The notes: a model not told the origin generated them from the letters alone. Counted from the first letter of the stretch, positions 4,234-64,000 are shown. The stretch: 64,000 nt of DNA from an uncultured bacterium (GCA_903937035.1 CAIZXS010000005.1:62746-126745), one strand, 5' to 3'. Numbers and translations are program-made.

Positions 4234-4278
4234 GTCATATCTAATAAGGCCTTATTATTGTGTCCCAAGCTTTGGTCT

Positions 4279-6663: not shown

Positions 6664-6789
6664 ACACTAACTTCGTGCTGGCACAAAGTGCCAAATAGCT
6701 TTTTATAATAGGTAAATAATTTTTTTCCAACATTTTATTTAACCCCCCCAGTGGTTGCTGATAAAAGCATGGAGTTAGTGTGGGACCGG

Positions 6790-18116: not shown

Positions 18117-18212
18117 AGAAAAAATAGGGGTTAGGTTTTTAGGTAGTATTTCAAGGTAGCAGGGATTTTTGTGAGTGTCAAATGGGAGTGTTTTGTGGAT
18201 ATTTTTCCGAAC

Positions 18213-18240
18213 AAAAAAGAGCCCTAATCAATAAGGGCTC
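18213..18240 (-). terminator. Rho-independent terminator after ispG
   Basis: Minus-strand hairpin gagcccttattgattagggctc followed by a T run. Confidence 0.55.
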
Positions 18241-18259
18241 CTAAAGGAGGGCTAATAAA

Positions 18260-19312: not shown

Positions 19313-19334
19313 GTAATTAGGATGTTTTAAAAAT

Positions 19335-20679: not shown

Positions 20680-20683
20680 ATTT

Positions 20684-21385: not shown

Positions 21386-21392
21386 AGGCGTG

Positions 21393-47816: not shown

Positions 47817-47872
47817 TATTTTCAGGCGTGTTGCCTTTTTGTCTAAGAGCAGAACTTTCTTGTTAGCTGGTG

Positions 47873-47900
47873 CTTTACAATTTTCATAAATACTATACAA
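47873..47900 (+). promoter_or_regulatory. Candidate promoter for the surface-protein cluster
   Basis: TTACAA, 16 nt spacer, TACAAT, located ~65 nt upstream of 47966. Confidence 0.3.
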
Positions 47901-47965
47901 TTTATATAGTAGTAGGTTTAGTGAAGACTTTGGTCTATTTAAAAAAAGTTTAAAATAAAAAAAAT

Positions 47966-48610
47966 ATGAAAAAGACGATTAAGATGACGTTGGCGAGTAG
48001 TGTGGTGCTAATGCTACTTTTTGTTATTCTTGAGCCACAACTAACAAAAGCCGTTAGTGATTCCGTTACTGTTTCTCAATCAGTTACCGCCGAGATCACC
48101 ATTTCTTCTCCGTCTGACGTGACAATGTCAAGTATTGCTGGTATCACTGGCGGAACCGGAACAGGGTCGGCCATTTGGAACGTCAAGACTAATAATTCCA
48201 CAGGATTTAATATGGCATTGAAGGCTGGCGCGGCCCCAGCACTTGCTAGCGGTGGAAATAATTTTGCTGATTACGGGGAGGCCACTCCCGATACACCTGA
48301 TTATACTTGGTCGATTGCAGCCACTGATTCAGAATTTGGTTATACGGTTGAACCAGCAACAGCTGGTGACGCTACAGTGATGTTCCGGGATAATGGGACA
48401 ACGACTTGTGGAACAGGAGCTAATCAGACTGCTGACAAATGTTGGATCAAGTTTAAGACAACTGATGTAATTGGGATTAACCGGTCTAGCGTAACAACTG
48501 CAGCTGGAGAAGACGAGGTGGTGAAATTCCAAGCTCAATCTGGCGCATCGCACTTTCAACCACAAGGAACATATACAGCTACCATTACCGCGACTGCCTT
48601 GGTTAACTAA
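47966..48610 (+). CDS. Secreted beta-rich surface subunit, SCPU/DUF4402-like (type 1 domain)
   Basis: 214 aa. Signal peptide. C-terminal strand GTYTATITATALVN resembles the G-x-Y-x-G-x-F-T-V-T-V-x-Y-N end of DUF4402/spore-coat-U-like fimbrial proteins. Paralogous to the C-half of 52762..53514. Confidence 0.45.
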   Translation: MKKTIKMTLASSVVLMLLFVILEPQLTKAVSDSVTVSQSVTAEITISSPSDVTMSSIAGITGGTGTGSAIWNVKTNNSTGFNMALKAGAAPALASGGNNFADYGEATPDTPDYTWSIAATDSEFGYTVEPATAGDATVMFRDNGTTTCGTGANQTADKCWIKFKTTDVIGINRSSVTTAAGEDEVVKFQAQSGASHFQPQGTYTATITATALVN

Positions 48611-48647
48611 GTAGATTTCAGATGCAGGGGGTCGGTCTAATATATCT

Positions 48648-49622
48648 ATGAAAAAACTATTACTTTTCTTTTTTGCGATTTGTCTTTTTAGCAAAATTGG
48701 GGCTGCCCCAGTTTTTGCTTATAAAATAGAAGCTTTGGACGACTCTGAGACTAAGGGTGATTTTGTTTTGGGACCAGGTAAGACGGAGCTTTTTATGAAT
48801 CCGGGAGAGACCTATACAAAGGAGCTGATGATAACCAATCGTCTAGGTCGTACGATGGAGTTTGGTGTAATCGTTGAGGATTTTAAGGGTTCGAAAAATC
48901 CAGAAGAGAGTGTAAATCTTTTGGGTGATGAGCGAGGACCATTTTCTTTGCGCGACTATATTAAACCGGAAATTACCAAATTCACATTGAAAAATAATGA
49001 AAGGATTCTTTTGCCGACAGTCATTGCGATTCCGGCTGGTTCTGAACCGGGTGGTCTCTACGCATCTGTTTTAGTGGTCACCAATCCATCGGAAGAGGAA
49101 TTGAAAAAAGAGGATGAGAATAAAGGAAAAACAAAACTTATTTCTCGCTTGGGCACGCTATTTTTTGTGCGCGTAAAGGGTACTGCTAAGGAAGAGGGAG
49201 TTCTCAAGAGTTTTAATGTTAAAGATAATAAGCTTTTTTTTGAAAAAGCACCAGTATCCTTGGAAGTTCTTTTTGAAAATACTGGCAGTGTTCATTTGAT
49301 GCCTTATGGCTCGATTGAGATCAAAAATATTTTGGGTCAAAAAATTGATGAGATTAATGTTGATCCATGGTTTATTATGCCCGGGTCAATGCGGTCACGA
49401 GTGATTGAGTGGAGCGGGAAGAAACTATTATTTGGTAGATATACAGCTGAATTGGTTGAAAATAGAGGGTATGGGGATATTTTAGATAAAAAATCAATTA
49501 GCTTTTGGATTATTCCTTGGAAAGTTGTTTTAGCTATACTTTTCTTTTTATTCCTACTTAGCTGGTTTTTTCGCTGGGTGGGACGTCAATTTCATTTTGA
49601 AGTCAAGAGAAAGAAAAAATAA
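48648..49622 (+). CDS. DUF916/DUF3324-like cell-surface protein with C-terminal TM anchor (CscA-like), paralog 1
   Basis: 324 aa. Signal peptide, EPGGLYASVLVVTNP and FENTGSVHLMPYGSIEIKN beta-sandwich motifs, C-terminal TM VVLAILFFLFLLSWFF followed by basic tail RKKK. Confidence 0.45.
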   Translation: MKKLLLFFFAICLFSKIGAAPVFAYKIEALDDSETKGDFVLGPGKTELFMNPGETYTKELMITNRLGRTMEFGVIVEDFKGSKNPEESVNLLGDERGPFSLRDYIKPEITKFTLKNNERILLPTVIAIPAGSEPGGLYASVLVVTNPSEEELKKEDENKGKTKLISRLGTLFFVRVKGTAKEEGVLKSFNVKDNKLFFEKAPVSLEVLFENTGSVHLMPYGSIEIKNILGQKIDEINVDPWFIMPGSMRSRVIEWSGKKLLFGRYTAELVENRGYGDILDKKSISFWIIPWKVVLAILFFLFLLSWFFRWVGRQFHFEVKRKKK

Positions 49623-49639
49623 ATAAAAAAACCTATTCA

Positions 49640-50344
49640 ATGAAGTATTATATTGCCGTTTTCTTTTTAGTGTTATTTGCTTTTGGCGCTCCCTGTTTTT
49701 CATTGGCTGGAATGAGCAGTCAAAATTTTTCCATCCAAGCTGATGCGATTGATGTTGGAGGTACGCGTTCTTCATCTGGGGGAGTTTCTTTGAATGATTC
49801 GCTCGATGAGCTGGCAACGGGAGAATCAAGGAGTCTTTCTTTTATGGCGGATATCGGTTTTTGGCCAATGGTGGGCAATGATGAGGTTATCTCTTTCACC
49901 GTGACAGACGCGATAGCTAGCTTGGGAACACTTAGTCATTCGGCAGTGAGATATGACACAGCTACTTTCCGCGCTGCAACAACAGCCAAGGGCGGTTATT
50001 CTATCCAGTTTTTTGGGGTACCATTAACTTCTGGGGGTAATTTGATTAGTGCGCTGAGCACACCAACGCCTTCTGCGACTGACACGGAACAGTTTGGGTT
50101 TAACTTAGTGGCCAATAATTCCCCAGCGGTGGGCGTTGACCCTGTGGGTGGATCAGGTCAAGCTGCAGTTGGCTATAATACGCCAGATAGCTTCAAGTTT
50201 GTCTCTGGTGAAACAATTGCTCAAGCAGCTTTGCCCTCTAACTTTACCAACTACACAATGTCAATCATCAGTAACATTACAGGAATAACTGACGCGGGAA
50301 ATTATGCCACAAACCTAACCGTTGTTGTGACAGGAAGGTATTAG
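49640..50344 (+). CDS. Secreted beta-rich surface subunit with N-module MSSQNFSIQAD.. (type 2 domain)
   Basis: 234 aa. Signal peptide. The N-module is shared with 52762..53514. C-terminal strand GNYATNLTVVVTGRY. Confidence 0.45.
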   Translation: MKYYIAVFFLVLFAFGAPCFSLAGMSSQNFSIQADAIDVGGTRSSSGGVSLNDSLDELATGESRSLSFMADIGFWPMVGNDEVISFTVTDAIASLGTLSHSAVRYDTATFRAATTAKGGYSIQFFGVPLTSGGNLISALSTPTPSATDTEQFGFNLVANNSPAVGVDPVGGSGQAAVGYNTPDSFKFVSGETIAQAALPSNFTNYTMSIISNITGITDAGNYATNLTVVVTGRY

Positions 50345-50436
50345 TTGATTTTGAAAAAAATAGCTTTACTCTTTTATTATTTTTGGTATAATAAAATAGA
50401 TGGAGAAAATATAAATAATATATTAGTAAAAACAAA

Positions 50437-51522
50437 ATGCAACAAAAAAAAGGATTCATTGTTGGCTTGGGGGTTATGGTGCTTATTACGCTTGGAGTGT
50501 TTATTCTGAAAGCTCAAGCCGCATCACTTACAACAGCAAGAGTTTATCTTAATCGAAATGCAGAAAATCTCACCACAGGCGTGGCACACGAAATCCAATT
50601 TACCCCAGCGACAGCTGTCTCTGGTGGGGCGGGAGTGAATAAAGTAATTTTGGTTTTTCCAGATGCTGATGATGGTAAGTGGTGTGCCACTGCGGGAGCA
50701 CTTGTTGTCACGACTACAGGACTAAAAGATACAGCTACTGCGCTTCCTGGCACTCCGACAGCTGCTTGCGTAAAAGGAGTGGGCGCTGCCAGCTACGACA
50801 CTATCACAATCAGCGCCGTTGATGATTTATCCGCTGCAACACTTTATGGTGTAAAACTGACAGATACTGGAGTGGGAAAACTCGGTACGCCGGCTAATAC
50901 AACATCAGGCATCATCACGATGAAAACCAATAACAATACGATTGACATTGATAGTACTAATTTTGTTATTGACATTCTTGCTAGCGATCAAATTTCTATC
51001 TCAGGTGTGGTTGACCCAACTTTGACTTTTTCTATTTCAGATAGCTCAATTGGTTTTGGAACAATTACTTCAGCTGCTGTGAGATATGTCACAGCAGATT
51101 TGCTGGGTAGCGCGACTGAAGCGACCAACGGGTTGCCATCGACAGTAACTGTTTCAACTAATGGTACTGGTGGTGTTGTAGTAGAAATCAAGGATACTAA
51201 TGCTAATTCAGCTTCTGGTCTCTATAGCAATGCTGGATCAGGAAAGACGATCGCTTCTGCTGCTAGTACTGCTGTTACCTTAGGGAATGAAGGTTTCGGA
51301 GTATATGGAAAAAATTCCAGCAACATTACGCTCAGCGAAGCGTTTGACAATGACAGCACCGCTGATCTGGCAATTAGCACAACTTTTCAAACTATTGCTT
51401 CAACAGCTGGTCCTGTTAGTTCCGGCTCATTTGATATCTCAGCCAAGGCTGGCGTGTCCGGTTCGACTCCTGCTGGTAGCTATGCCGATACGCTGACAGT
51501 TGTTGCAACAGGAAAATTCTAA
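50437..51522 (+). CDS. Secreted/anchored beta-rich surface subunit (type 2-like domain, larger)
   Basis: 361 aa. N-terminal TM/signal. Region TFSISDSSIGFGTITSAAVRYVTADL parallels ISFTVTDAIASLGTLSHSAVRYDTATF of the preceding gene. C-terminal GSYADTLTVVATGKF. Confidence 0.45.
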   Translation: MQQKKGFIVGLGVMVLITLGVFILKAQAASLTTARVYLNRNAENLTTGVAHEIQFTPATAVSGGAGVNKVILVFPDADDGKWCATAGALVVTTTGLKDTATALPGTPTAACVKGVGAASYDTITISAVDDLSAATLYGVKLTDTGVGKLGTPANTTSGIITMKTNNNTIDIDSTNFVIDILASDQISISGVVDPTLTFSISDSSIGFGTITSAAVRYVTADLLGSATEATNGLPSTVTVSTNGTGGVVVEIKDTNANSASGLYSNAGSGKTIASAASTAVTLGNEGFGVYGKNSSNITLSEAFDNDSTADLAISTTFQTIASTAGPVSSGSFDISAKAGVSGSTPAGSYADTLTVVATGKF

Positions 51523-51545
51523 ATTAATCCTTACTCTTAAATCAA

Positions 51546-52535
51546 ATGACTGCGAAAAATAAATTTCTTGCTTTTCTTAGAATCGGTGCATTTCTTTACT
51601 TTATTTTTCTGGGAAAAGGAGCATTTGCTCTCACAATTTCTCCTCCAGTGAGGGAGATGACAGGGGACCCAGGAACAAAAATCAGTGGGATTATAAAGCT
51701 TTACAATGAAACCAATAAGGACCTTTCCGTTACTCCTTCGCAGTCAGACTTTGGCGCCAAGGAAACTGGTGACGGCGAGCCAGAATTTTTTGAGTTGAGC
51801 GGAGAAAAATCAAAAGATTTAGCCAGTTGGATTAAGGTTCCCGCTGGTCCTTTTGCAGTTAGATCGCTTGATTGGCAAAATATTATTTTTGAAATTGATA
51901 TCCCAAAAGATGCTGAGCCCGGAGGTCACTATGCTGCAGTTTTCTTCAGTCCGCAGCAATCAGAGAAAGACAATAATGGATCAGTTAGTGTTGACTATAG
52001 AACTGGGACATTGATTCTTCTCACGGTTTCGGGAAAAATGAATGAAAGTGGAAATTTGAAAAGTTTCTCTCTGAAAGATGGCAAAAAATTCTATGATCAC
52101 ATTCCGGTTAATTTTGAATTGAATGTTGAAAACAAGGGCAATGTTCATTTTAAACCAGCGGGAAATATCATTGTTAAAAGTATGTTTGGCGGAAATATCG
52201 CTGAGCTGCCAGTCTTGAAGGTTGATTCTGGTGGAAATGTTTTGCCCAGAAGCAGCCGTCGATTTGAGATTGTTTGGGGTGATTCGGATGAAAAGAAAAT
52301 GCCTAAAACTTTTTGGGAAAAGGCTAGATATGAATGGGCTAATTTTTATGTCGGAAGATATAGTGCGCTTGCGAGTGTGACGCTTCCTGGAAGCGGTCAG
52401 GTGACTTCCAATGTTTCATTCTGGGTTTTTCCTTGGCAGTTGCTTATTGTGCTGGCCATTGGACTGGTTGTGTTATTGTTTGCGTTTAGAACGTATAACC
52501 GTTGGATTATCAAAAAAGCCAGAGAGAAAAAATAA
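51546..52535 (+). CDS. DUF916/DUF3324-like cell-surface protein with C-terminal TM anchor, paralog 2
   Basis: 329 aa. EPGGHYAAVFFSP, FELNVENKGNVHFKPAGNIIVKS, C-terminal TM LLIVLAIGLVVLLFAF plus basic tail. Collinear with 48648..49622. Confidence 0.45.
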   Translation: MTAKNKFLAFLRIGAFLYFIFLGKGAFALTISPPVREMTGDPGTKISGIIKLYNETNKDLSVTPSQSDFGAKETGDGEPEFFELSGEKSKDLASWIKVPAGPFAVRSLDWQNIIFEIDIPKDAEPGGHYAAVFFSPQQSEKDNNGSVSVDYRTGTLILLTVSGKMNESGNLKSFSLKDGKKFYDHIPVNFELNVENKGNVHFKPAGNIIVKSMFGGNIAELPVLKVDSGGNVLPRSSRRFEIVWGDSDEKKMPKTFWEKARYEWANFYVGRYSALASVTLPGSGQVTSNVSFWVFPWQLLIVLAIGLVVLLFAFRTYNRWIIKKAREKK

Positions 52536-52581
52536 AAAAGTATTAAGGATTTCTATTTATATAAAAAATAACCCCCCCTAT

Positions 52582-52720
52582 TGTCATTCTGAGCGTAGCG
52601 CAGCGAAGTCGAAGAATCTGCTATGAGTTATTCTAATCCTTGCTATATTATAGAAAGCTTATGGTAGTGGATGGCAGATCCTTCGACTGCGTCCGAGTAC
52701 GGACTTCGCTCAGGATGACA
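52582..52720. repeat. Repeat family A, copy 3
   Basis: tgtcattctgagcgtagcgcagcgaagtcgaagaatctg ... gcagatccttcgactgcgtccgagtacggacttcgctcaggatgaca. Preceded by a C7 homopolymer. Confidence 0.7.
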
Positions 52721-52761
52721 TTTTTATTTAAATGCGCAAGTCCTTTTTTCAAAAGTTCGCT

Positions 52762-53514
52762 ATGAAAATTTATTTTGCTCTATTTATTCTTTTCTTTGGT
52801 CTTGGGACTGCCTCGGTTTTTGCTGCAATGAGCAGTCCAAATTTTTCTATTCAAAGTGATGATGTTTCCGTGGCCGGTTCTCGTTCTGAATCGTCCAATT
52901 TTCGTGCTGAGGATACTTTGGGCGAGTTAGCTACCGGAGATTCATCTAGCGCTTCCTATCGCTTGCGATCGGGCTATCAAAGTATGCAAGAGGTGTATCT
53001 TGCACTAAGCGCTCCATCGGATGTGACGATGACCCCAACTATTCCTGGTGTGAGTGGTGGCTCTGGCAATGGTTCTGTTTTTTGGACTGTGACAACAGAT
53101 AATCTAGCAGGCTATTCTTTTTATGTTAGAGCAGGAGCAGCCCCAGCTCTCACTAAATTAGGTAACCCTGGCGTATTTTTTGATGACTATACTCCTGGCG
53201 CAGCTCCTGATTATGCCTGGCAAGTTGATTCGACAAAAGCCGAATTTGGCTTCACCCCGGAAGGGTCTGATATTGTGCAAAAATTTCGTGATAATGGATC
53301 ATCTTGCAACACAGGAACATTTGATACGCCAGATGCTTGTTGGTATAATTTTGTTGCATCTAACCCGGGCGAGCTGATTGCTCACTCAGCCGGTTCCAAT
53401 CATCCAACTGGCATTGCCACCACCGTCAAGGTGGAGGCTCAATCGAATTCTTCTCATTTGCAAGAGGCTGGGACCTATCAAGTAACAATCACCGTGACAG
53501 CATTGGCAAATTAA
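52762..53514 (+). CDS. Secreted mosaic surface subunit: N-module of the 49640 type + C-terminal domain of the 47966 type
   Basis: Start taken at MKIYFALFILFF (signal peptide). The ORF track starts 10 codons earlier at 52732. AAMSSPNFSIQSDD...GELATGDSSSAS parallels 49640. LALSAPSDVTMTP...GTYQVTITVTALAN parallels 47966. Confidence 0.45.
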   Translation: MKIYFALFILFFGLGTASVFAAMSSPNFSIQSDDVSVAGSRSESSNFRAEDTLGELATGDSSSASYRLRSGYQSMQEVYLALSAPSDVTMTPTIPGVSGGSGNGSVFWTVTTDNLAGYSFYVRAGAAPALTKLGNPGVFFDDYTPGAAPDYAWQVDSTKAEFGFTPEGSDIVQKFRDNGSSCNTGTFDTPDACWYNFVASNPGELIAHSAGSNHPTGIATTVKVEAQSNSSHLQEAGTYQVTITVTALAN

Positions 53515-53538
53515 AAAAATATTAAATTAAAATTTGAT

Positions 53539-54777
53539 ATGGATAAATTGAAATTATTCATTAGGCAAAAATCAGCAATCAGAAAATTAATGAGCTTAAC
53601 CTTTCTTTTAACCTTTCTTTGGATGGATTTTTTTGTTTTCGGTGTGATAATTGGAAAACCCCTAACCTTTGCTCAGGCAGAGAGCACGATTCGCGTTGGG
53701 CTAAGAGTTCTTCCTTCGAATCCTATTGAAAATACTGAAAAAATAATTCCAAATAATGAGAAGCATGAATCATTGTCAGACTTAAGATCTTCCAGTTTTC
53801 GCTTGATTTCTTCTGTTGAAAATACAGATAAGAGTCTTCAGCTAAATGAAACCTCTCAGCCTGGTGAAAAATCTGATCAAGTCATGGAGTCAGATGGAGT
53901 TGTTTTGGGGAAATCAATTGTGGATTTTCAGGGCAAGGCGATTTATCCAAATTCAAATGTGCTCCTAGAGATTAGATCTTCTCCATTTTTAACTTCAGTA
54001 ATCAGTGATAGTCAGGGAAATTGGACTTGGACTAACTGGTGTCATCCTCTTGAAGATGGAGAGCATTGGCTGGAAGCGAGCAATGTTTCCCCCTTTGACT
54101 TATCAGGAAAAAGAGATATTTTCATACAAAGGTTTAAATTTTTTGTCAAAAACCAAGTAGATAGTAAACTAACTGACCAATTAGCACTTGAGAAATTAAT
54201 ATCCACAGCGGGTACTGATGGTGTAGCCGATATATTGGGCAAGGGGAATGTGAAAGATTTGTATTTGTTTAATATTGCCCTCCTAAACAAGAAAGAATAT
54301 AATCCACAAGATGAAATGTTTTTGCAATTGCTATTTAATCCTCTTGGACAAATTTCCGATAAAGAAGCCTTGATAAAATATGAAATTTATGGCGTAGACG
54401 AAAATGGCAGTATCGACCAGCCTCTTTTGGAGCTAAATGACAAAATAGAGCTTGCCGAAAATAAGGCTTTTCTAAAAAAAATTAAGTTACAAAAAGAGAT
54501 CACTGGTAACGAGTATTTTATTAAGGTAATGGCCTATATTGGTGGCAATGAATACGTTCAATCAGCTAAATTTGGAATAGCTCCCAAGATATTGCTTCAG
54601 GTGGGTGAAGTGAAGATAGATCAAGATAAATTTAGTAAGATCATTGTCTGGAATTCTTTGGTGGTTGTGGGTTTTGCAATCATAGTCCTTCTGTTGATGA
54701 TTTTTGAGTATCACCAGATGTCTCAATCTGATCTGATTAACGCTAAGATGTTAAAAAAACGACACTATTTTTCTTAG
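53539..54777 (+). CDS. Membrane-anchored protein with Ig-like domain, hypothetical
   Basis: 412 aa. N-terminal TM/signal, KSIVDFQGKAIYPNSNVLLEIRSSPFLTSVISDSQGNWTW (bacterial Ig-like pattern), C-terminal TM IIVWNSLVVVGFAIIVLLLMIF. Confidence 0.4.
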   Translation: MDKLKLFIRQKSAIRKLMSLTFLLTFLWMDFFVFGVIIGKPLTFAQAESTIRVGLRVLPSNPIENTEKIIPNNEKHESLSDLRSSSFRLISSVENTDKSLQLNETSQPGEKSDQVMESDGVVLGKSIVDFQGKAIYPNSNVLLEIRSSPFLTSVISDSQGNWTWTNWCHPLEDGEHWLEASNVSPFDLSGKRDIFIQRFKFFVKNQVDSKLTDQLALEKLISTAGTDGVADILGKGNVKDLYLFNIALLNKKEYNPQDEMFLQLLFNPLGQISDKEALIKYEIYGVDENGSIDQPLLELNDKIELAENKAFLKKIKLQKEITGNEYFIKVMAYIGGNEYVQSAKFGIAPKILLQVGEVKIDQDKFSKIIVWNSLVVVGFAIIVLLLMIFEYHQMSQSDLINAKMLKKRHYFS

Positions 54778-54807
54778 TGAGTGTATTAATTTTTAATAAA
54801 TAAAAAT

Positions 54808-55110
54808 ATGGAACACGTGGCTTGTCTTATCAATCTATGTAATGCCCTGTTTTTGATGGCAATCATACTTTTTACCGTGATTATTATAATAAAAACAGAA
54901 AAAGAGCTGAAAAAAGTTTTTGAATTATTTTTTGTTTCTTTTTCGATTTTATTTTTATCAAGTGTTTTCGGGCTAAATCGTTTCTTTGAAATCATTACAC
55001 CGGTTGAAGCGGAGTTGGCGCTAGTTATTTCTCGGTTAATTTCTCTAATTTTTGTTTTTTTTGCGTGTTTTTTAATGATGAAATTGGTAAAAAATATGCA
55101 ATCAAAGTGA
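54808..55110 (+). CDS. Small integral membrane protein, hypothetical
   Basis: 100 aa, three hydrophobic helices. Own terminator downstream. Confidence 0.35.
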   Translation: MEHVACLINLCNALFLMAIILFTVIIIIKTEKELKKVFELFFVSFSILFLSSVFGLNRFFEIITPVEAELALVISRLISLIFVFFACFLMMKLVKNMQSK

Positions 55111-55209
55111 AAGTGATTAGTGTGGTAGTTGAGATGGGCTACCAGGCTTAACTTTTGGCCTAAATCTGCTATAATTAAAGAGTTATAAGTGTCTTCAAGG
55201 GGGATGCGA

Positions 55210-55240
55210 AAGACGGGTGAGCCCGTCTTTTTGTTTGTTC
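55210..55240 (+). terminator. Rho-independent terminator ~20 nt upstream of the giant gene start
   Basis: aagacgggtgagcccgtctt hairpin followed by tttgtttgtt. Confidence 0.55.
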
Positions 55241-55261: not shown

Positions 55262-58200
55262 ATGCCGCCGCTAAAACAAAAAAATCAAAACACAATATCT
55301 TTTCAAAAGACCTCCTTCGTGTTGATTTTCTTGGCAGTTGTTTTCCTCGTTGGCGTGAAAAATTCTCAGGCGGTAATTTCTGAGAAGATTAATTATCAAG
55401 GAAAATTGACTGATTCGAGTAACGTAACTGTAGCTGACGGAGCATATGACATTGTTTTCAATCTTTACACGACTGCTGGTGGTGGTTCTCCAATTTGGAC
55501 AGAGTCTTGGACAAACTCAGCCCTTTTCACAAATTCTGGAACAACTTTCACAAATAATGGTTGCGCGGCAGGAGTGGATCGCATGGCCTATACTGGAGAC
55601 ACTAACGAGGGAACACTTTCAGCGGGACAATATCTTTGGAATACAACCAAAAAGGAATCAGCCGTAATTGAGTCTGTGAGCACTTCCGGTTCTGGCGGGT
55701 ATATTTGTTTTTATGATCCCTATTCAACTTGGGCAAGTAGTGATGCTATTTCTAACCGCATCTATGTCCGCAGTGGAATTTTTTCCACTATGCTTGGAAG
55801 CGTGCAAAGTCTCAGTGCAATTGATTTCAATCAAACGCTCTATCTAGGAGTGACAATCGGAGGTGATCCAGAAATGCAACCAAGAAAAGTGATTGGTTCT
55901 GCTCCATCAGCTTTTACAGCCAAAACATTGAATAATAATGGCACTGCAACAATAGCCACCAATGCCGGGGCGACAATTAGCATTGGCAATACAACTGGAG
56001 CAGCTACTGTGCTTTCCGGCGGAGCATCTTCTTGGGCTAACACGAGTGGAAACCTGACTGTTTCTACGGTGACTTCCGGAACGCTCGCTGTGACATCAGC
56101 TGGAGCACTTAATTTGTCTGCCGCTGCCGCTTCGACTGCAACGCTCGCCAATGTTGCTGATGCATTTAATTTTGATAGCAACACTCTTTCTGTTGATGCT
56201 CTGAATAATCGAATCGGAATTGGGACGGCTGCTCCAACCGCATTTTTGGACATAGCAGCATCCACAACTGGCGCTGCTAGCTTGCGTTTGCAAACAGGAG
56301 TTGCTCCGACAACTCCGAATATCGGTGATATGTGGTTTAATGGGACTAATCTATATTTCAGAAAAGATGGTACAACATCGCAAGACTTGTTGGCTTCAAG
56401 TGGTAGCGGACCTTGGACTGACGGCACTGGCGTTACATATATAACTGACACAGCAGAGGACTTGGCAATCGGCGCAGCAACATTGGTTGCGCCTTTTTCC
56501 GTTGATGTTTCCCTGAATACTGCTCGCATCGGTACTGGAGCGACTAATAATGGAATTCTAAACATGTATGCCTCAGATGGTGATACTGGTTCGCTTGCTT
56601 ATACCACCGACGATGCTTGGACTTTCACGGGTGGTAATGTGGGAATTGGCACTACTCAACCATGGAGTGCTCTTCATGTCACTAGTAGTGTATTGTGGGG
56701 TTCAAATGTTTATCTCGAAGCCACCAATGCTGGTGCGGATTTTCCAGTTTGGACATTTAAGAAATCCAGAGCAGGCGCTTCGGTGAATGCTTGGGATTCA
56801 TTGGGGGAGATGAAATTTGCTGGAGTCAACAGCACGGGAAGTTCAGATTCTGATTTTGGAACTATTATTGGTATTGCGGAAGATCCAACTTCGGGTTCAG
56901 AAGATGGAAATTTTATGTTTTCTGTTGTCAGAGGTGGTGCAATGATTGAACAAGCAAGATTTAGTGGGCCGGAGGGAGTTAATTTTAATTACCAGAACTC
57001 TCCCAATGTTGATTTTACGGTTTCAGGAGACACAATCAGTCAACTCATATTCGCTGATGCCAGCACAGACACAATTGGGATTGGTGTTGCTGCGCCAAAA
57101 GCTTTTCTGTCACTAGCCGGTGCTACGGCTGGAAAATCTTCCCTGAATATTGCTACTGGCACTGCTCCAACCGGCGGTAATCTCTATGATGGTGATATGT
57201 GGTATGAAACTGGGCATCTCTATTTCCGCGATACGACAACGAAAGACCTCTTAGCTGGAGGAGGAATGGCAATTGGAGGAACAATCTCAAATAGTCCCAA
57301 TGATACGTCAATACTATTCGTGAACGGTTCAGTTCTCGCCCAAGATACCAATTTTACTTGGAACACAACTAATGATGAATTGGGAATTGGAGTGGCTCCG
57401 ACATATAGAGTTGATGTTGCAACGGCGGTGGCAAGTGATCGTGGAGTTAATATTTCCAATACTGCTGCAACAGGAACAAACTATGGTATCTTTTCTTCCG
57501 TCACCGGCGCAGCGACTGCTAATTATGGTGGAAATTTTGCATCCAGTGGCGCTGTTACCAATTATGGCGTGAATATTGCTGGCATGACAGGGTCGGCTAC
57601 AGCTTTGAATAACTATGGCGTATATGTGGGAACCATTACGAGCACCAGCTCAACCAATGCGGTTAATTATGGAATATATGTCAATGGAATAACTGGAGTT
57701 ACAGCCGAGGATAATGCTACAAACGTTGACTTATACCTAGGAAATATCACTGGCTCAACCACAACTTCAAGTAATATTGGACTCAAGATGGGAACCATCA
57801 CAAGCACCTCTGGAACCGGATCGAACTACGGAATTCAATTAGGTGCCATTTCTGGCGCAACAAATAATTCCTATGGCATTTCACTTAATACCTTGACCGG
57901 AGGCGTTCTGACCAACACTCAAATTGCGACTGGCCAGATCACTGTAACAGGCGCAGTGACTGGAAGCTATGCTCTTAATCTGGGTGGGTTGACGGGAACA
58001 GCTAACGCAGCGACTAACGCTGGAATCAATCTTGGTGCAATAAATTCCGCCGGAACAACGAGCACAAACTATGGAATTCGCTTGAGCACAATGACCGGAG
58101 GAACAACCGCAAATTATCAAATTGCGACTGGCGCGCTCACAAACACTGGTACGACCAACATTCAGCTCGATTTAGGCGGACTTTCTGGTTCTGTTGCATC

Positions 58201-61200
58201 TTCGAATAATTATGGAATTAGACTTGGCGCAATCAGCTCAGCCGGAACCACTTCGAATAATTATGGAATTAGTCTTGGAACATTGACTGGTGGCACGACT
58301 TCCAACACGCAAATTGCCACAGGCGCAATCACAATTACCTCTGTTTCTAACTACGGATTAAATATCGGCGGACTTTCTGGCTCTGTTGCTTCTTCTAATA
58401 ATTATGGCATCAATGTTGGCGCAATCAGTTCTGCTGGAGCAACTTCCAATAATTATGGAATGAATATCACATCAATCACTGGTGGTGTAACGGCTAACTA
58501 TGGTTTAAATGTCGGCGCAATCACAACCACTGGTGCGACCAATTCTTATGGTTTGAATGTGGCTGCAATGACTGGCACGGGAGCATCTAGTTATGGATTA
58601 AATGTGATGGCGGCGACTGCCACGGGAACAAACGTGTTTGGTATGCAAATTAATGGAGCGACTGGTGGCTCAGCTAATAGTTATGGCTTAAACGTGACGG
58701 TGCCGATCAATGCTACTGGGCACAAGGCAGGCATTGAAATTGGAGCAGCTTCCACAGCAAGTGGAAATTGGGCGCTTTATTCTGGTGATACAAACGGATC
58801 ATATCTAGCGGGAAATTTAGGCCTTGGAACAGCAGTGACCACAACTTCATTTCTCAGTCTGGGTGCCCATACCACTGCAAAATCAAGTCTAAATATTCCA
58901 TCTTCTGGTGGCGCTGTTCTTTCTGCTCCTGTTATTGGGGATATGTGGTTTAATGGAACCAGTCTATATTTTAGGAAAGATGGTTCAACTTCGAGCGACC
59001 TTCTTGCTGCTGGGGCTGGAATGTCGATTGGTGGAAGTATTAGTAGCTCAACTTCTGGTTCTATTCTCTATGCTAATAGTTCCAACCAAATGGCTCAGGA
59101 TAATGCTAACTTTTTTTGGGATGCAACGAACAAGCGCCTAGGAATTGGAACAACTGCTCCATCACAAGCGTTGACAGTTAATGGAAGCATCAGGTTGGCT
59201 GCTGGCGTGACAAATAGCTTAGTCTTTCAAGATGGAACGACAATGACGACGGCTGCTGCCACCTCCACTGGCTATACGAGTACAACTGATTTGAACTTTG
59301 CGGCGGACAGTGATACTAATGGTTCTGGTACGATGTTTTTTGCTACTAATGGCCTGGAAAGAATACGTGTCACAAATGCTGGACTAGTTGGTGTCGGCAC
59401 AGCATCAGGAACCGCGCAATTAGCAGTCAATACAACTGGTACAAACAATCTTTTGCAATTGCAAAAAGCTGGACTGGATAAGTTTGTAGTGGATAATAAG
59501 GGTGGCGTGACAGTCAACGGAACATCAGCAAATAACGTCAAGACAACTACTGGAACAACCAATGTGACAGATTTTTCCTTTACTGGCTCAACCTTTACTA
59601 ATGTCACTTCGCAAAATGATGAAGTTGATATTGATGCCGGATCGGTGGTAACAACTTTCTCATCAGCCGCGGCTAATACTGCAGTCAATGCTGGAGCGGG
59701 ATCACATAGTATCGTGCGTGATGATGGCAGAGTAATTGTTGTTCATGGCGGTGGCGCAGCGACTGGATCATCGTGGGACGGATCATCTGCGACGATGACT
59801 TCAGTCACCGTTGCTTCGGCTGCTTCAGTTGGAGCAGGCGCAATCTCTCTGAAGCGTCCTAACGGAAGGTATCTTCTGGTGCACGGTAATGGTTCGGCTG
59901 GACTTTCTTCTGTTTATGACCCTTGGAATATTACAGCAGCCGCTGCTGGCCCAGCAGTTTGTGGAGGTGGGGCAACAACAACGGGAACTAATGCTTTTAT
60001 GCGACCAGATGGAAAATATGTCATTATGTGCGGAGGTTTGACAGCTTGGGGTGTCTATGATCCTTCGGCTGCTGTCGCAGCTGGATACACTGCAGGCACA
60101 GTAGTCGCTTCAGCTTTTGGCGCTGGCGCTTTTGCGATCCAAAGAGATGATGGAACGTTTTTAGTTTTTCGCGGAGGCAGCACAACCACACATTGGATTT
60201 ATAATCCTTTTGCTGGTGCGACTGGAACCTGGACAATAAACCCAATCACAACTAATATGCCAACAATTTCTACTGGAGCTTTTGCTATCCGTAGGAATGA
60301 TGGAAAATATTTGATTGTGGGAGGAGCGATTAATACTTCAACTATCTATAACCCAACGACAACGACTTCTAATTCTGGTGCGGGAGCTTTTGAGCTCATT
60401 AATGGTGGTGTAGCAGCAGCCGGTTTCGGGCCAATCACCACTGCTCTTGCAGACGCTGCTCAAGTAGTGCGTCGACAAGATGGGAAATATCTGATGGTGC
60501 ATGGTGGCGCTTCAACGCTAACTGATATCATTGATCCATCTGTCACGACCAATCAAATGTTTTTAGCTGGAACAGCCCTTAATAATGCCATGGGTGCTGG
60601 CGGACATTTTGTTCCGAGGCCAGACGGAAAATATGCCATCATTCGCGGAGGCGCTGCAACCCCAGTCGATACTTATGATATGGGCTTTGTGATGGGAGGG
60701 AATGGATCAGGATCGCAACTTTCGAGTTATGAAACGGAATGTATGACAGCGACCTCACTTAATCAATCTTCCACACTCAACTGGACAGCTAATATGGAAG
60801 GAACGCTTATTTTTCAGGTAAAAACAGGAACAGGTTCTTGTTCTGGAGCTTATAAGAACATTCTAAATAGTGGGGATTTAATTCGTCCTGTGGCAGGAGA
60901 TAATCGCGTTCAAGTTAAGGTTTTTTTCAAGCGCCCATTTTTTATCGGTTACGACCAGGAGTGGTCTTTGTGGCGTGGTCTTAGCCAGCCACGTTATCGT
61001 GCGAAAGTGGCCGATCCAACACTATATGACATTAAGGTTGATAATTCCTCTCAGCTACATCGCTCCCTGTTTGACTTTGGTATTGGAACAAATAATGCCA
61101 CTACCGATCCATCTGGACCAGTATCTTCGAATTTGAATGTGACTATGGATGGTAAATTACAGTTAGCAGCTGGTGTCGGAATGCAAAATCTTGCCCCAAC

Positions 61201-64000
61201 TACTGTTCCCTCTCCTACTCTTGGACTTGCTTATGGTGGCGCCTATGCAACACAGTCAGCTCTCACGACCGGTGCCTTAGAGGGCACTATCGTGATGAGA
61301 CGTCCAGATGGAACCTTTTTGGTTATTGCGGGTAATGCAGCGACAGCTAATGCGCAAGTATATGATCAAAATACAGGTGTATTTACCGCTAATGCTAATG
61401 GGGTGTATGGTGCTACTTGTAGTGGTAATTGTGTACCAACAACATACGCCAAAAGAGGAGCTCTTGCTTTCAAGCGTCCTGATGGAAAATATTTAGTGGT
61501 ACTTGGTGGTGCTTCTACTACGACAAACATATATGATCCAGTCGCAAGCACATTCACTGCTGGGCCAGCAGTTACTGCTAATGTTGCTCGTGGATCGCAA
61601 GTAATTCCACTACCTAATGGTCGGGTGCTTATTATTCATGGAAACACAACTGCAACAACATCTATTTATGACCCAATTCAAAATATAATGCTTATTGGTC
61701 CATCGTCGCCAGTGAATGTTGGTCCAGGATCATTAGTGATTCCTAATGTTAATGGTACTTGGCTTCTTATTCCTGGTCTTCCGGATACTGGTACGGACAC
61801 AGCAATTACCTGTGGAACGCCCGTTACAACATCAACCATCTTTGATTCATATTCTATGCTATTTTCTCCAACAGCTTCAGCGCCAACGATTGTTACGGGA
61901 ACTGGTCCGGGAGCGCTTGCTTTACAGCGTTCTGATGGGTTATGGGTTATCACAAAAGGTGGTGCCGTAGTGACGACATGCGCTACCACGGTACTTACTA
62001 CTCATATATACAATCCAACCACTGGAAAGATTGTTGCTGGTCCAAGTGTAATAACCCAAGCTCCTGGGCAAGGTAGTCATGTAATACAGCGCCCCGATGG
62101 AAATAGAATAATTGTAAATGGTGGAGGAACAGCGACATCGCAGGTATATATAGAAAAAGATATTGCAGCAACACATGCTTTTGGTGAACAAATTGGTCTT
62201 TTCGTAGCCGGCGGACCAGCTCCTGCTGCCATTGGATCAGGATCAGTTTCTTTTCAGAGGGATGATGGAAAGCAAGTAACGATTTCTGGCGGAACAACCA
62301 CTACTGCCATATCTGTTGGTACTGTCAATACGGGCGTGCAAATGCTTGATTTGGGCTGGGCGGCGACAGGGGCATATCGGACAGAACAAATCAATGTTTC
62401 TGATCTCAGCACCGACTCAACACTTAACTGGAAAGCGACACCAAATATGAACAACATTTCAGCTGAAGTGCGCACAGCCACAAGTCAGCTTGGACTTCAA
62501 TTGGCCACTTCTCGCGATATCACAACATCCGGTGGTCTCATTAATCCTGGCGGATCAGAAACTTGGATTCAGATTCAATTTAATTTCAAGCGAATATTCC
62601 CAAATAATCCTGGAATTTGGAGTGATGTGTGGTGGAATGGTGGCTCGACAATGGCATTTAATTTGCGTACTATTACTAATCCGACTCTCAGTGAATTCAA
62701 GGTAAGTAAGGATGTCGATTTGGTTAACTTAAAATCAGACGGTTTGTCGATGTTTCGGGTTGGAACTAATGGTAGCATCTATACTTCTGCGACTGGAGTG
62801 ATTAATTCTGGTGGCGCCGACTTGGCTGAAAATTATACTTCAAATGATGCGTTGGAAAAAGGCGAAATTGTGGCGATTGATCCATCTGATAATCATAATG
62901 TTAAACGTTCTGCGTTGCCATATCAAAATGATCTTTTGGGAGTGGTTTCGACTGCTCCGGGTTTTGTGGCTGGCTCATATACCAAGGATTCTCATCCAAT
63001 TGCGCTGGTTGGACGCGTGCCGGTCAAGGTTTCTTCCGAAAATGGAATGATTCGCGAAGGTGATCGCATTACATCAGCTTCAATTCCTGGATTTGGTATG
63101 CGCGCGACATTCAGTGGGCGAGTAATTGGAACTGCGCTTGAATCAATGGATTCGGTTAATCTGGAAACTTGTCCAGCTGGTGGATATATCATGCCCAATG
63201 CAAAATGTGGTGAGATTATGGTTTTTGTTAATCTGGTGGATTATTCTGGAATGTCAGTGGACACATTGATGGCTGAGTCGAATGATGACACTGAGTCTGA
63301 AACAGAAACAGTTGATCAAAGTTCGCCTTTTGCTCAATTTGCAACGCAAGGAAAAATCCTAAATTTCTTGAAGAAAATGCGAGCAACTCAAACTAATTAC
63401 CGAGGTAGCGATATTTTGACCAGCAACGTGAGTGCAATTGGTCAAGTCGTTAGCCCGCTTATTGTGACAGACACTTTGATTGCCAAAAATATCAAAGCGG
63501 AAAATATTGAAGGGTTGCAATTTATCCAAACCGGAATCACTGACGCACAAAATGGCGTCTCAACCAACGCCACGGAAGTCAAAAACTTGGGACAACAATT
63601 GATTGACCTGCAAACTATGATGAAAGCGTTGACTGACAAATCCAATGGTGTAGATGCTGACGCGGTCAAAGAGATGGCAGTTAGCTATGGCTTGGTGGAG
63701 AGTGGACCGGCAGAATTCAAAGGACAGGCAATATTTAAGGCGATTGCAGAGTTTGTTGACAAGGTAATTTTCAGAAACAATGTTGAATTTGCTGGTCAAG
63801 TGATCTTTAATGAGGATTCAGCCGGATATGCCATTGTGAATAAAGGTGAGAATAGCGTGAAAGTAGAATTTGCCAAGGAATATGCCAATGTGCCAATCAT
63901 CAATGCCAGCCTTTCCGTGCAAGACATTAAAGATGAGGAATTGCGCAGTGCGACAGAAGATTTGATTTTGGCAACAGATGTTAAATATTTAATCACGAAT
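55262..64000 (+). CDS. Giant secreted/surface protein (>2900 aa, C-terminus off window) with NYGI-type beta-helix-like repeats, recurrent IGDMWFNGTxLYFRKDG modules and >=14 Kelch-like repeats
   Basis: Manual translation from ATG 55262 (in-frame TAA 6 nt upstream) stays open to the window end. N-terminal TM/signal ISFQKTSFVLIFLAVVFLVGVKNSQA. Repeats such as GAISSAGTTSNNYGIRLG. Kelch-like units of the form R-x-DGKYL-V-x-GG ... IYDP. Conserved (N/K)xLGIGTxAP..L.V motifs. Confidence 0.8.
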   Translation, partial: MPPLKQKNQNTISFQKTSFVLIFLAVVFLVGVKNSQAVISEKINYQGKLTDSSNVTVADGAYDIVFNLYTTAGGGSPIWTESWTNSALFTNSGTTFTNNGCAAGVDRMAYTGDTNEGTLSAGQYLWNTTKKESAVIESVSTSGSGGYICFYDPYSTWASSDAISNRIYVRSGIFSTMLGSVQSLSAIDFNQTLYLGVTIGGDPEMQPRKVIGSAPSAFTAKTLNNNGTATIATNAGATISIGNTTGAATVLSGGASSWANTSGNLTVSTVTSGTLAVTSAGALNLSAAAASTATLANVADAFNFDSNTLSVDALNNRIGIGTAAPTAFLDIAASTTGAASLRLQTGVAPTTPNIGDMWFNGTNLYFRKDGTTSQDLLASSGSGPWTDGTGVTYITDTAEDLAIGAATLVAPFSVDVSLNTARIGTGATNNGILNMYASDGDTGSLAYTTDDAWTFTGGNVGIGTTQPWSALHVTSSVLWGSNVYLEATNAGADFPVWTFKKSRAGASVNAWDSLGEMKFAGVNSTGSSDSDFGTIIGIAEDPTSGSEDGNFMFSVVRGGAMIEQARFSGPEGVNFNYQNSPNVDFTVSGDTISQLIFADASTDTIGIGVAAPKAFLSLAGATAGKSSLNIATGTAPTGGNLYDGDMWYETGHLYFRDTTTKDLLAGGGMAIGGTISNSPNDTSILFVNGSVLAQDTNFTWNTTNDELGIGVAPTYRVDVATAVASDRGVNISNTAATGTNYGIFSSVTGAATANYGGNFASSGAVTNYGVNIAGMTGSATALNNYGVYVGTITSTSSTNAVNYGIYVNGITGVTAEDNATNVDLYLGNITGSTTTSSNIGLKMGTITSTSGTGSNYGIQLGAISGATNNSYGISLNTLTGGVLTNTQIATGQITVTGAVTGSYALNLGGLTGTANAATNAGINLGAINSAGTTSTNYGIRLSTMTGGTTANYQIATGALTNTGTTNIQLDLGGLSGSVASSNNYGIRLGAISSAGTTSNNYGISLGTLTGGTTSNTQIATGAITITSVSNYGLNIGGLSGSVASSNNYGINVGAISSAGATSNNYGMNITSITGGVTANYGLNVGAITTTGATNSYGLNVAAMTGTGASSYGLNVMAATATGTNVFGMQINGATGGSANSYGLNVTVPINATGHKAGIEIGAASTASGNWALYSGDTNGSYLAGNLGLGTAVTTTSFLSLGAHTTAKSSLNIPSSGGAVLSAPVIGDMWFNGTSLYFRKDGSTSSDLLAAGAGMSIGGSISSSTSGSILYANSSNQMAQDNANFFWDATNKRLGIGTTAPSQALTVNGSIRLAAGVTNSLVFQDGTTMTTAAATSTGYTSTTDLNFAADSDTNGSGTMFFATNGLERIRVTNAGLVGVGTASGTAQLAVNTTGTNNLLQLQKAGLDKFVVDNKGGVTVNGTSANNVKTTTGTTNVTDFSFTGSTFTNVTSQNDEVDIDAGSVVTTFSSAAANTAVNAGAGSHSIVRDDGRVIVVHGGGAATGSSWDGSSATMTSVTVASAASVGAGAISLKRPNGRYLLVHGNGSAGLSSVYDPWNITAAAAGPAVCGGGATTTGTNAFMRPDGKYVIMCGGLTAWGVYDPSAAVAAGYTAGTVVASAFGAGAFAIQRDDGTFLVFRGGSTTTHWIYNPFAGATGTWTINPITTNMPTISTGAFAIRRNDGKYLIVGGAINTSTIYNPTTTTSNSGAGAFELINGGVAAAGFGPITTALADAAQVVRRQDGKYLMVHGGASTLTDIIDPSVTTNQMFLAGTALNNAMGAGGHFVPRPDGKYAIIRGGAATPVDTYDMGFVMGGNGSGSQLSSYETECMTATSLNQSSTLNWTANMEGTLIFQVKTGTGSCSGAYKNILNSGDLIRPVAGDNRVQVKVFFKRPFFIGYDQEWSLWRGLSQPRYRAKVADPTLYDIKVDNSSQLHRSLFDFGIGTNNATTDPSGPVSSNLNVTMDGKLQLAAGVGMQNLAPTTVPSPTLGLAYGGAYATQSALTTGALEGTIVMRRPDGTFLVIAGNAATANAQVYDQNTGVFTANANGVYGATCSGNCVPTTYAKRGALAFKRPDGKYLVVLGGASTTTNIYDPVASTFTAGPAVTANVARGSQVIPLPNGRVLIIHGNTTATTSIYDPIQNIMLIGPSSPVNVGPGSLVIPNVNGTWLLIPGLPDTGTDTAITCGTPVTTSTIFDSYSMLFSPTASAPTIVTGTGPGALALQRSDGLWVITKGGAVVTTCATTVLTTHIYNPTTGKIVAGPSVITQAPGQGSHVIQRPDGNRIIVNGGGTATSQVYIEKDIAATHAFGEQIGLFVAGGPAPAAIGSGSVSFQRDDGKQVTISGGTTTTAISVGTVNTGVQMLDLGWAATGAYRTEQINVSDLSTDSTLNWKATPNMNNISAEVRTATSQLGLQLATSRDITTSGGLINPGGSETWIQIQFNFKRIFPNNPGIWSDVWWNGGSTMAFNLRTITNPTLSEFKVSKDVDLVNLKSDGLSMFRVGTNGSIYTSATGVINSGGADLAENYTSNDALEKGEIVAIDPSDNHNVKRSALPYQNDLLGVVSTAPGFVAGSYTKDSHPIALVGRVPVKVSSENGMIREGDRITSASIPGFGMRATFSGRVIGTALESMDSVNLETCPAGGYIMPNAKCGEIMVFVNLVDYSGMSVDTLMAESNDDTESETETVDQSSPFAQFATQGKILNFLKKMRATQTNYRGSDILTSNVSAIGQVVSPLIVTDTLIAKNIKAENIEGLQFIQTGITDAQNGVSTNATEVKNLGQQLIDLQTMMKALTDKSNGVDADAVKEMAVSYGLVESGPAEFKGQAIFKAIAEFVDKVIFRNNVEFAGQVIFNEDSAGYAIVNKGENSVKVEFAKEYANVPIINASLSVQDIKDEELRSATEDLILATDVKYLITN

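Follow-up and report, generated by a model that had tools for sequence, protein, structure and literature searches.

Gene content of the locus

The DNA analyzed was a stretch of 64,000 nucleotides from an uncultured bacterium (GCA_903937035.1, CAIZXS010000005.1:62746-126745). This whole stretch is termed the window, and all positions are counted from its first letter unless a locus number is given. The subject of this report is a cluster of eight genes at 47966-55110, denoted A to H, together with the giant gene that follows it, denoted Z. The products of the cluster were compared with the parts of pili that are built by donor-strand exchange, and in particular with those of Pam pili.

Pam pili are filaments of Ca. 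Mycosynbacter amalyticus, a parasite from the Saccharimonadia, and were resolved by cryo-electron microscopy (Troman et al. 2026, bioRxiv 10.64898/2026.03.03.709456). Their pilins, PamA and PamB, are composed of an N-domain, a linker strand, and an incomplete immunoglobulin (Ig)-like C-domain, and they polymerise through donor-strand exchange. The same operon encodes PamC and PamD, which are PapD/FimC-like chaperones with C-terminal transmembrane helices; a further pilin, PamE; a tip pilin, PamT; and PamR, an RbmA-like terminator featuring two FnIII domains, a transmembrane helix at the C-terminus, and a strand at the N-terminus. No usher is found in the operon, whose constant neighbour is a “tail fibre-like” protein. 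The NCBIfam models NF058579 and NF058581 derive from this preprint, in which WxL and DUF916 are not mentioned.

The features of the locus were as follows (aa, amino acids).

A, 47966-48610, + strand: pilin with a single Ig-like pilin domain, which follows a cleavable signal and a conserved N-terminal extension (about residues 29-43, VSDSVTVSQSVTAE)
B, 48648-49622, + strand: membrane-anchored protein with two Ig domains, of the DUF916/WxLIP lineage
C, 49640-50344, + strand: PamT-like protein with an N-module of ~57 aa and a Pam pilin C-domain
D, 50437-51522, + strand: two-part pilin with an N-terminal region (~30-180), the conserved linker DQISISGVVDPTLTF, and a Pam-type C-terminal domain
E, 51546-52535, + strand: paralogue of B with a C-terminal transmembrane segment and a basic tail
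F, 52762-53514 (alternative start 52732), + strand: PamT-type N-module and A-type pilin domain, without the N-terminal extension
G, 53539-54777, + strand: bitopic protein with a signal or N-terminal transmembrane segment, a conserved N-terminal strand, an Ig-like domain, and a C-terminal transmembrane segment
H, 54808-55110, + strand: 100-aa protein with three transmembrane segments, conserved partner of the G-type anchor
Z, 55262-64000 (window end), + strand: giant gene, an open frame; the full length is L088 10455-19529
Promoter-like site 5' of A, 47874-47901, + strand: TTTACA-16-TACAAT, from a consensus scan only
Terminator-like hairpin, 47824-47836, 3' of the FemAB gene that precedes A: from a consensus scan
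Strong terminator-like hairpin between H and Z, 55208-55231, + strand: 10-bp stem and T-run, pattern-level evidence

The original prediction, a note made earlier from the window alone, had described eight co-directional genes with signal peptides or membrane anchors, and all eight are indeed located on the + strand at the coordinates above. In a hydropathy scan, a hydrophobic N-terminal segment was present in 8/8 products; a C-terminal transmembrane segment with a basic tail was detected in B, E, and G, and three transmembrane segments were detected in H. The subunits (A, C, D, and F) end in a beta-strand, with neither an LPXTG motif nor a C-terminal transmembrane segment, and the four C-terminal strand motifs that had been quoted for them are present as written. 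A surface protein of more than 2900 aa had been noted at the end of the cluster; the open frame from 55262 encodes 3024 aa on the full 146-kb contig. The count of promoter-like sites in the region was not above the shuffled expectation in the consensus scan.

The cluster is flanked by housekeeping genes (RuvA, FemAB, PolA, and beta-lactamase-like). The PolA and nicotinate phosphoribosyltransferase of the window fall into 90%-identity clusters named Candidatus Moraniibacteriota bacterium at NCBI, and Candidatus Moraniibacteriota is part of the Parcubacteria group of the Patescibacteria, or candidate phyla radiation (CPR). Judged from the names of these protein clusters, the host is a Moranbacteria-like CPR bacterium. 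CPR cells are known to lack an outer membrane.

Paralogy and pilin-domain families

All products of the cluster were compared with one another using BLASTP. A and F share 41% identity over 179 aa (E = 2e-32), the N-termini of C and F share 45% over 77 aa (2e-13), B and E share 28% over 315 aa (5e-28), and the C-terminal domains of C and D share 25% over 175 aa (8e-7). By these E-values (8e-7 to 2e-32), the paralogy that had been claimed for the cluster is far above chance. Profiles were compared in hhalign: the pilin domains of A and F constitute one family (probability 100%), the C-domains of C and D constitute a Pam-type family (96%), and the N-modules (~57 aa) of C and F are homologous (99.5%). 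At this level of comparison, the cluster contains two pilin-domain families, A/F and C/D. F had been viewed as a mosaic of a C-type N-module and an A-type domain, and this description stands; the recent module shuffling that had been read from it does not, as the same architecture is normal in ~70 related loci.

Distribution of the two cassettes

Relatives of B were located in a scan of GTDB with one genome per species, and 80 loci were fetched and read for synteny. In the neighbour counts below, the denominators are the loci with room. The scan yielded 369 stretches, nearly all of which were CPR-titled (Patescibacteria group, Paceibacterota, and Jackson-, Magasanik-, Falkow-, Kaiser-, Nomura-, and Taylorbacteria). 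Many of the titles read “uncultured Candidatus Saccharibacteria”, and a few stretches were in bins of other taxa that were apparently mislabelled.

An A-like gene is positioned directly 5' of B in 63/67 loci with room, and an F-like gene directly 3' of B in 68/73. Next after F is a gene whose product, of 410-550 aa, has a signal and a C-terminal transmembrane segment; 57 of 61 such anchors belong to one family, which is represented in 44/58 loci, and they contain fn3 domains (1e-13 to 1e-14). A Z-like giant gene is found downstream in 26/45 A-B-F loci. C, D, and E were absent from all A-B-F loci read except L004, which is 84% identical to the window. Stand-alone C-D-E sets were found in contigs L084-L087. 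Upstream of these are genes for a 476-481-aa protein (signal, Big_13, and C-terminal transmembrane segment) and for a ~100-aa protein with three transmembrane segments, and the Z-like protein that follows them is 57-62% identical to the Z of the window over its N-terminal 320-390 aa. When metagenomes were scanned with the D family, one short locus was obtained.

As read from gene order, the window locus is a fusion of two cassettes, A-B-F (cassette 1) and C-D-E (cassette 2), each of which stands alone elsewhere, and A-B-F is a widespread variant outside the curated Pam family models. The duplicated two-component assembly of the original prediction can be recognized in these cassettes, which occur as separate loci in other genomes. 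That note had also set as a test the co-occurrence of the cluster genes and the giant gene in relatives, and the synteny was kept in the loci read. The C-termini of the subunits are specific to the cassette (..N in A and F, ..G-[RK]-[YF] in C and D), which fits one dedicated chaperone per cassette.

Several variants of the A-B-F arrangement were observed. Two or three A-like genes stand in tandem in L017, L027, and L036. Enlarged F-like proteins of 464-619 aa are encoded in L027 (4427-5821 and 5989-7848) and L074 (7195-9042); they comprise a PamT-type N-module, one or more inserted domains, and a C-terminal A/F-type pilin domain, a layout that is, by analogy, that of a two-domain tip adhesin. 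In L009 (11965-14157) and L015 (4261-6579), a gene for a 730-770-aa protein with ~13 transmembrane segments lies between the F-like gene and the anchor.

Sequence and fold of the subunits

C passes the NCBIfam model NF058581 (CPR_Pam_pilin_C) with 143.2 bits at a cut-off of 55. By its sequence, C is PamT-like without being an equivalog at the NCBI threshold, and within cassette 2 it is the candidate for the tip subunit. D has an N-terminal region of ~150 aa that a highly conserved linker joins to a Pam-type C-domain. Conservation within the D family is highest in this linker, which contains the invariant ISISGVVDP. D, with this PamA/B-like layout, is the candidate shaft subunit of cassette 2. 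The score of F against NF058581 (22.3 bits) is under the cut-off. The N-terminus of F matches the N-terminal part of NF058579 (PamT), and 39/40 members of the F family match that model in this part only. F is the candidate tip subunit of cassette 1, and A its candidate shaft subunit.

A homologue search with A returned 387 sequences. The N-terminal extension ranks among the most conserved segments of the family, with D32, V36, Q38, and V40 conserved in at least 90% and with hydrophobic residues in alternation. The family has two invariant Cys, and its last strand is located at the extreme C-terminus. In A-type pilins, an invariant Glu and a Pro conserved in at least 90% lie where the hydrophobic core of the signal ends (residues 20-28 of A; “FEPxxxxA|”); C, D, and F lack this motif. 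Conservation of this kind is unusual in an ordinary signal peptide and might reflect a dedicated processing step.

A model of A was compared with the PDB using Foldseek. The closest solved fold was the archaic chaperone-usher pilin CsuA/B, followed by TLP-2, the SCPU-domain CupE pilin (third), CfaE/CfaB, the pilin domain of FimH, FimG, FimI, PapG, and PapK; the list is weak (E of at least 7e-3), yet almost all of its entries are donor-strand fibre subunits. The long-WxL chain of 9i25 was not among the top structural matches. At the sequence level, no Pfam match at E <= 1 was obtained for A, C, D, or F, including the SCPU, DUF4402, fimbrial, and PapD families; Pfam searches with all eight proteins of the cluster were likewise empty, with no match to DUF916, DUF3324, DUF4402, SCPU, or WxL. 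The WxL domain was also without a match in 40 members of the A family. The likeness to SCPU-type subunits that had been suggested is upheld by structure and not by sequence. In sequence searches of the PDB, no relative was obtained for C, for D, for the profiles of the A family and of C/D, or for the C-terminus of Z; no entry for PamA or PamB could be detected in the PDB copy used.

The anchored paralogues B and E

B had 444 homologues, and those with names were from Patescibacteria. PF06030 (DUF916, now WxLIP_PGBD) was matched by 20/30 aligned homologues of B, with a best E of 1.7e-6, and the B-family profile matched EfmWxLIP1 in the PDB (9i25_C/9i1y_A, E = 1e-3). In hhalign, B and E were related with a probability of 100% (E = 2e-40), and orthologues of E in stand-alone C-D-E loci gave weak or faint matches to PF06030. 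B and E themselves had no Pfam match. Based on these relationships, B and E belong to the DUF916/WxLIP lineage, and the resemblance to DUF916 proteins that had been proposed for them holds. The proposed resemblance to DUF3324 was not borne out: PF11797 had no match in B, E, or 30 homologues, although a second beta-sandwich domain is present in the model of B.

The AlphaFold2 model of B (predicted local distance difference test score 87.5) features two beta-sandwich domains and a helix at 291-314. Its top Foldseek matches in the PDB were the E. faecium WxLIP structures 9i1y and 9i25 (6e-13); RbmA and the chaperone-usher chaperones CfaA, CsuC, FimC, Caf1M, DraB, and CupB2 came next, with E-values of 1e-9 to 1e-7 for CfaA, CsuC, FimC, and Caf1M. 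Target-normalised TM-scores were 0.5-0.57 for the chaperones vs. 0.37 for RbmA; the chaperones thus fit the geometry of the model better. B and E are the candidate subunit chaperones of cassettes 1 and 2, respectively. In the literature library searched, no paper brought WxL or DUF916 together with CPR.

Co-variation of donor strand and anchor

An anchor that ends the fibre by inserting its N-terminal strand, as proposed for PamR, should have a mature N-terminus that mimics the donor strand of the pilin. In 47 A-B-F loci, the 13-residue A-like extension was scored against the N-terminal region of the anchor by the best ungapped BLOSUM62 match, and significance was evaluated by permutation. The mean score was 22.7 for pairs from the same locus vs. 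15.9 for pairs from different loci (p = 5e-4). In the control, the extension scored 10.1 against the N-terminal region of the chaperone from the same locus. Examples of pilin extension and anchor are IYDQFTISQTVTA and AYDNFTVSQTVTG (L023), IEDQFTVSQSITS and IEDQFIISQTVTG (L029), and AEDSVDVSLTVTA and QSDSVNVSLKVDS (L009). Where the central residue of the pilin is Q, that of the anchor is Q; where it is L, the anchor has L. In these alignments, the extension and anchor of A-B-F loci co-vary as donor-strand termination would predict.

For cassette 2, ISISGVVDP of the D linker and V-R-F-R-Q-E-I-T-P of the G family both fit the pattern h-x-h-x-x-x-h-x-P, and the N-terminus of G in the window reads I-R-V-G-L-R-V-L-P. 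The linker and the G-family sequence also agree with the narrower form h-x-h-x-[GQ]-x-h-x-P. The linker was not singled out when the best ungapped match to the N-terminal strand of G was sought within D; only the pattern is shared.

The anchor, its partner, and the giant protein

The G family comprises 53 proteins with the N-terminal motif h-x-h-x-Q-x-I-x-P-x-N-P. Weak matches to Big_13 and Big_7 were obtained for 4/26 and 2/26 members, respectively. G is similar to the anchor encoded upstream of stand-alone C-D-E loci (E = 1e-13 to 1e-15), such that the two are of one family, and Big_13 passes its cut-off in the latter anchors. An assignment of G to the FN3-type anchors of A-B-F loci was rejected: there is no similarity to that family, and G falls in the C-D-E anchor family. 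By its position and topology, G is the PamR-like terminator/anchor candidate. H is 24% identical over 94 aa (pairwise E = 2e-6) to the ~100-aa protein with three transmembrane segments by the anchor in L084, and a similar relationship holds in L086.

The Z-like proteins listed (including those of L006, L010, L015, and L019) have a mature start of A-[FI]-N-x-x-I-N-Y-Q-G-K-L-T directly after the signal peptide; the regular expression matches 17/18, and the eighteenth reads INYQAKL. Hidden Markov models of the pilin domains found no pilin domain in the Z of the window or the remaining giant proteins. Directly 3' of the giant gene is a gene of the Beta-lactamase2 family (L088 19731 onward, L084 16661-17644, and L086 17519-18523); in L084 and L086, which are stand-alone C-D-E loci, it is on the opposite strand.

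Interpretation of the locus

With good confidence, the cluster is considered to encode a Pam-kind pilus that is built without an usher, by chaperone-assisted donor-strand exchange, in a single-membrane bacterium that is Moranbacteria-like. The original prediction of a pilus- or fibre-like assembly of beta-rich subunits and DUF916-like anchored proteins gains support from the passage of C by NF058581, from the WxLIP/chaperone fold of B, and from the CsuA/B fold of A; its designation as novel does not survive, as Pam pili were already described in 2026.

The assembly may be envisioned as follows. All parts would be exported by Sec. The anchored proteins B and E would hold newly exported subunits, lending a beta-strand to the incomplete Ig fold, and on polymerisation the donor strand of the next subunit would replace that of the chaperone. 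The donor strand would be supplied by A from its N-terminal extension, or by D from the linker between its domains. F and C have the small N-module in place of a donor strand, and they would for this reason start the fibre at its tip. G, in which a pilin-like strand at the N-terminus is followed by an Ig-like domain and a C-terminal transmembrane segment, would end growth and tie the fibre to the membrane. Donor-strand exchange, the tip, shaft, and anchor roles, filament formation, and host attachment are all putative.

A number of points weigh against this interpretation. Its basis is in silico throughout (gene content, homologies, predicted folds, synteny, and co-variation). C aligns with NF058579 (PamT) over its full length (4-234 vs. 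4-241), and its 171.9 bits are below the cut-off of 240; D scores 25.1 bits (E = 1.5e-5) against NF058581, also under the cut-off of 55. The A family has no NCBIfam match, and none of the NCBIfam models matched B or E. In hhalign, the comparison of the A/F domain with the Pam-type C-domain was not significant (probability ~1%), the last strand excepted, and homology of the two types of pilin domain is not claimed; the A/F domain is tied to Pam solely by the N-module, the chaperone family, the fold, and synteny. The fold-search scores of A are modest, and in its monomer model the N-terminal extension forms no regular strand and is not seen to fill the groove. G is Ig-like and not FnIII, and the FN3 anchor usual for A-B-F loci is missing from the window. 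Z had no match to the pilin-domain models, Pfam, or PHROG. Finally, the role described for WxLIP proteins is that of holding WxL proteins at the surface and not that of a pilus chaperone (Hassan et al. 2023, PMC10599100).

It is possible, although doubtful, that the locus encodes two independent fibres, A-B-F and C-D-E, with G anchoring C-D-E alone and with the adjacency of the cassettes being a recent rearrangement that involves no functional coupling. The cassettes are separate in nearly all other genomes, the fusion being common only to the window and L004; G and H are in families of the C-D-E type; and the A/F and C/D pilin domains are not detectably similar. Set against these observations, single filaments of M. 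amalyticus alternate between stretches of PamA and of PamB, and its operon has two chaperones, four pilins, and one anchor. Moreover, the extension of A, the linker of D, and the N-terminus of G have one strand pattern, and an independent A-B-F fibre would be unanchored in this host, as the FN3 anchor of that type has been lost here.

The main rival to a Pam-kind pilus is a complex of the WxL/WxLIP type, in which B and E would be permanent holders that each display one or two secreted subunits stoichiometrically, with no polymerisation. The nearest relatives of B in both sequence and structure are WxLIP/DUF916 proteins. The A-B-F triad, in which a WxLIP-like protein stands with a small subunit and with a larger one that has additions at its N-terminus, mirrors the commonest WxL cluster (one WxLIP protein with a small and a large WxL protein), and AlphaFold2 predicts that a strand of DUF916 inserts into the WxL domain (PMC10599100); the literature read reports no filament for WxL loci. 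Weighed together with the absence of a WxL domain from the partners and with their donor-strand-like extensions, which resemble those of polymerising pilins, this arrangement is judged improbable. A prophage or tail-fibre receptor-binding module, or a set of unrelated secreted wall proteins that are alike by composition, is scarcely credible: the Pam paper applies the term “tail fibre-like” to the giant neighbour, one Z-like protein (not that of the window) matches a PHROG without known function, and the subunits are T/S/G/A-rich, but the flanks are housekeeping genes, the Z of the window has no phage family match, the paralogy reaches E-values of 1e-32 with conserved Cys pairs, and the synteny extends across hundreds of CPR genomes.

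Other features of the window

No usher or sortase family is present in the precomputed Pfam annotation of the whole window, in agreement with the original prediction. Classical chaperone-usher pili were rejected on the first count, and sortase pili on the second and on the lack of LPXTG in the subunits. The companion statement, that the window is devoid of type IV pilus machinery, proved incorrect: a type IV pilus-type ATPase is encoded at 13828-16848 (- strand), ~31 kb from the cluster. This protein of 1006 aa has two T2SSE (PilB/MshE-type) matches and a weak MshEN match; it is unusually long, apparently doubled, and not next to the cluster.

Five genes at 2360-7455 (- strand) encode a 7TM_transglut membrane protein, an ATPgrasp_ST protein, and three RimK-like ATP-grasp proteins; this run looks like a peptide-modification or ligation cluster. 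At 9586-11625 (- strand) is a gene for a probable surface protein of 679 aa with the domain order LTD, PKD_4, LTD. The contiguous genes at 16974-22535 (- strand) encode a DHH protein, IspG, IspE, IspF, IspD, and Dxr, of the methylerythritol phosphate isoprenoid pathway, in a CPR genome. Neither tRNA genes nor Rfam families were detected in the whole 64 kb.

Implications

Little is known of the means by which ultrasmall CPR bacteria locate and retain their hosts. The first structure of a CPR-specific filament is that of Pam pili, which so far come from a single cultured species of Saccharimonadia; the present locus suggests a related system in the Parcubacteria group, of which hardly any members have been cultured. 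The parts that it lists are a shaft pilin bearing an N-terminal extension, a pilin for the tip, a chaperone, an anchor, and a giant partner protein, and the co-varying N-terminal strand is a sequence signature that can be searched for and tested. The DUF916/WxLIP link also lends a mechanistic reading to the WxL clusters that are involved in adhesion and virulence in enterococci, listeriae, and lactobacilli.

As a tentative proposal, the A-B-F-anchor arrangement may be the commonest, and as yet uncatalogued, usher-less donor-strand pilus of Parcubacteria-side CPR, with chaperones that are co-ancestral with the WxLIP proteins of Firmicutes. Jointly with this, and equally speculatively, the Pam pili of CPR and the WxL/Csc systems of lactobacilli and enterococci could be two branches of one ancient single-membrane chaperone-subunit system. 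If so, WxLIP would be a strand-donating chaperone or anchor, and Z would join the fibre via its invariant mature N-terminal strand.

Comparison with known systems

Archaic chaperone-usher pili (Csu of Acinetobacter and CupE of Pseudomonas, with SCPU domains) differ from the present system in several respects. Here, there is no outer membrane and no usher; the candidate chaperones are membrane-anchored and not soluble; and there is no sequence match to SCPU, DUF4402, or PapD.

WxLIP proteins of Firmicutes consist of DUF916, DUF3324, and a transmembrane helix, and AlphaFold2 places a strand of theirs into the WxL partner (Hassan et al. 2023, PMC10599100). B and E have the same layout, i.e. two Ig domains, the first of them DUF916-like, and a C-terminal transmembrane helix (PDB 9i1y, 9i25), and in both the WxL/WxLIP (Csc) loci and the present one an anchored protein is accompanied by a small and a larger secreted partner. 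In contrast, the partners here have no WxL domain, PF11797 is not matched, the subunits have donor-strand-like extensions and resemble polymerising pilins, and the system is found in CPR rather than in Firmicutes.

The features shared with Pam pili are more numerous. Both systems are CPR-specific, with all parts exported by Sec. By description, the parts are the same: two transmembrane-anchored chaperone candidates with two Ig domains, four pilins, and one transmembrane-anchored terminator candidate. The pilins include a subunit of the PamT type (here C, along with the N-module of F) and a pilin in two parts whose linker is conserved (here D). As modelled, B has two beta-sandwich domains and a C-terminal transmembrane helix, like the PapD/FimC-type chaperones of the Pam operon. 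Usher, sortase, and retraction ATPase are lacking from the operon in both cases, and the neighbour is a giant “tail fibre-like” protein.

The present locus departs from the Pam operon in its host, which is Moranbacteria-like and of the Parcubacteria group, and in the A-B-F pilin, which is of another family, resembles classical chaperone-usher pilins in having one domain and an N-terminal extension, and has a pilin domain that the curated Pam models miss. The anchor is Ig-like (Big_13-type) and not FnIII, whereas the anchors of A-B-F loci elsewhere are fn3 proteins like PamR; the conserved protein H, with its three transmembrane segments, is present; and ATP synthase, CorB, and major facilitator superfamily neighbours are absent from the window. 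The chaperone candidates here are relatives of DUF916/WxLIP, a link that does not appear in the Pam preprint. The kind of system is already known from Pam pili; what is new here is a locus of the Parcubacteria group with two fused cassettes, a pilin family outside the Pam models, and chaperones linked to DUF916/WxLIP.

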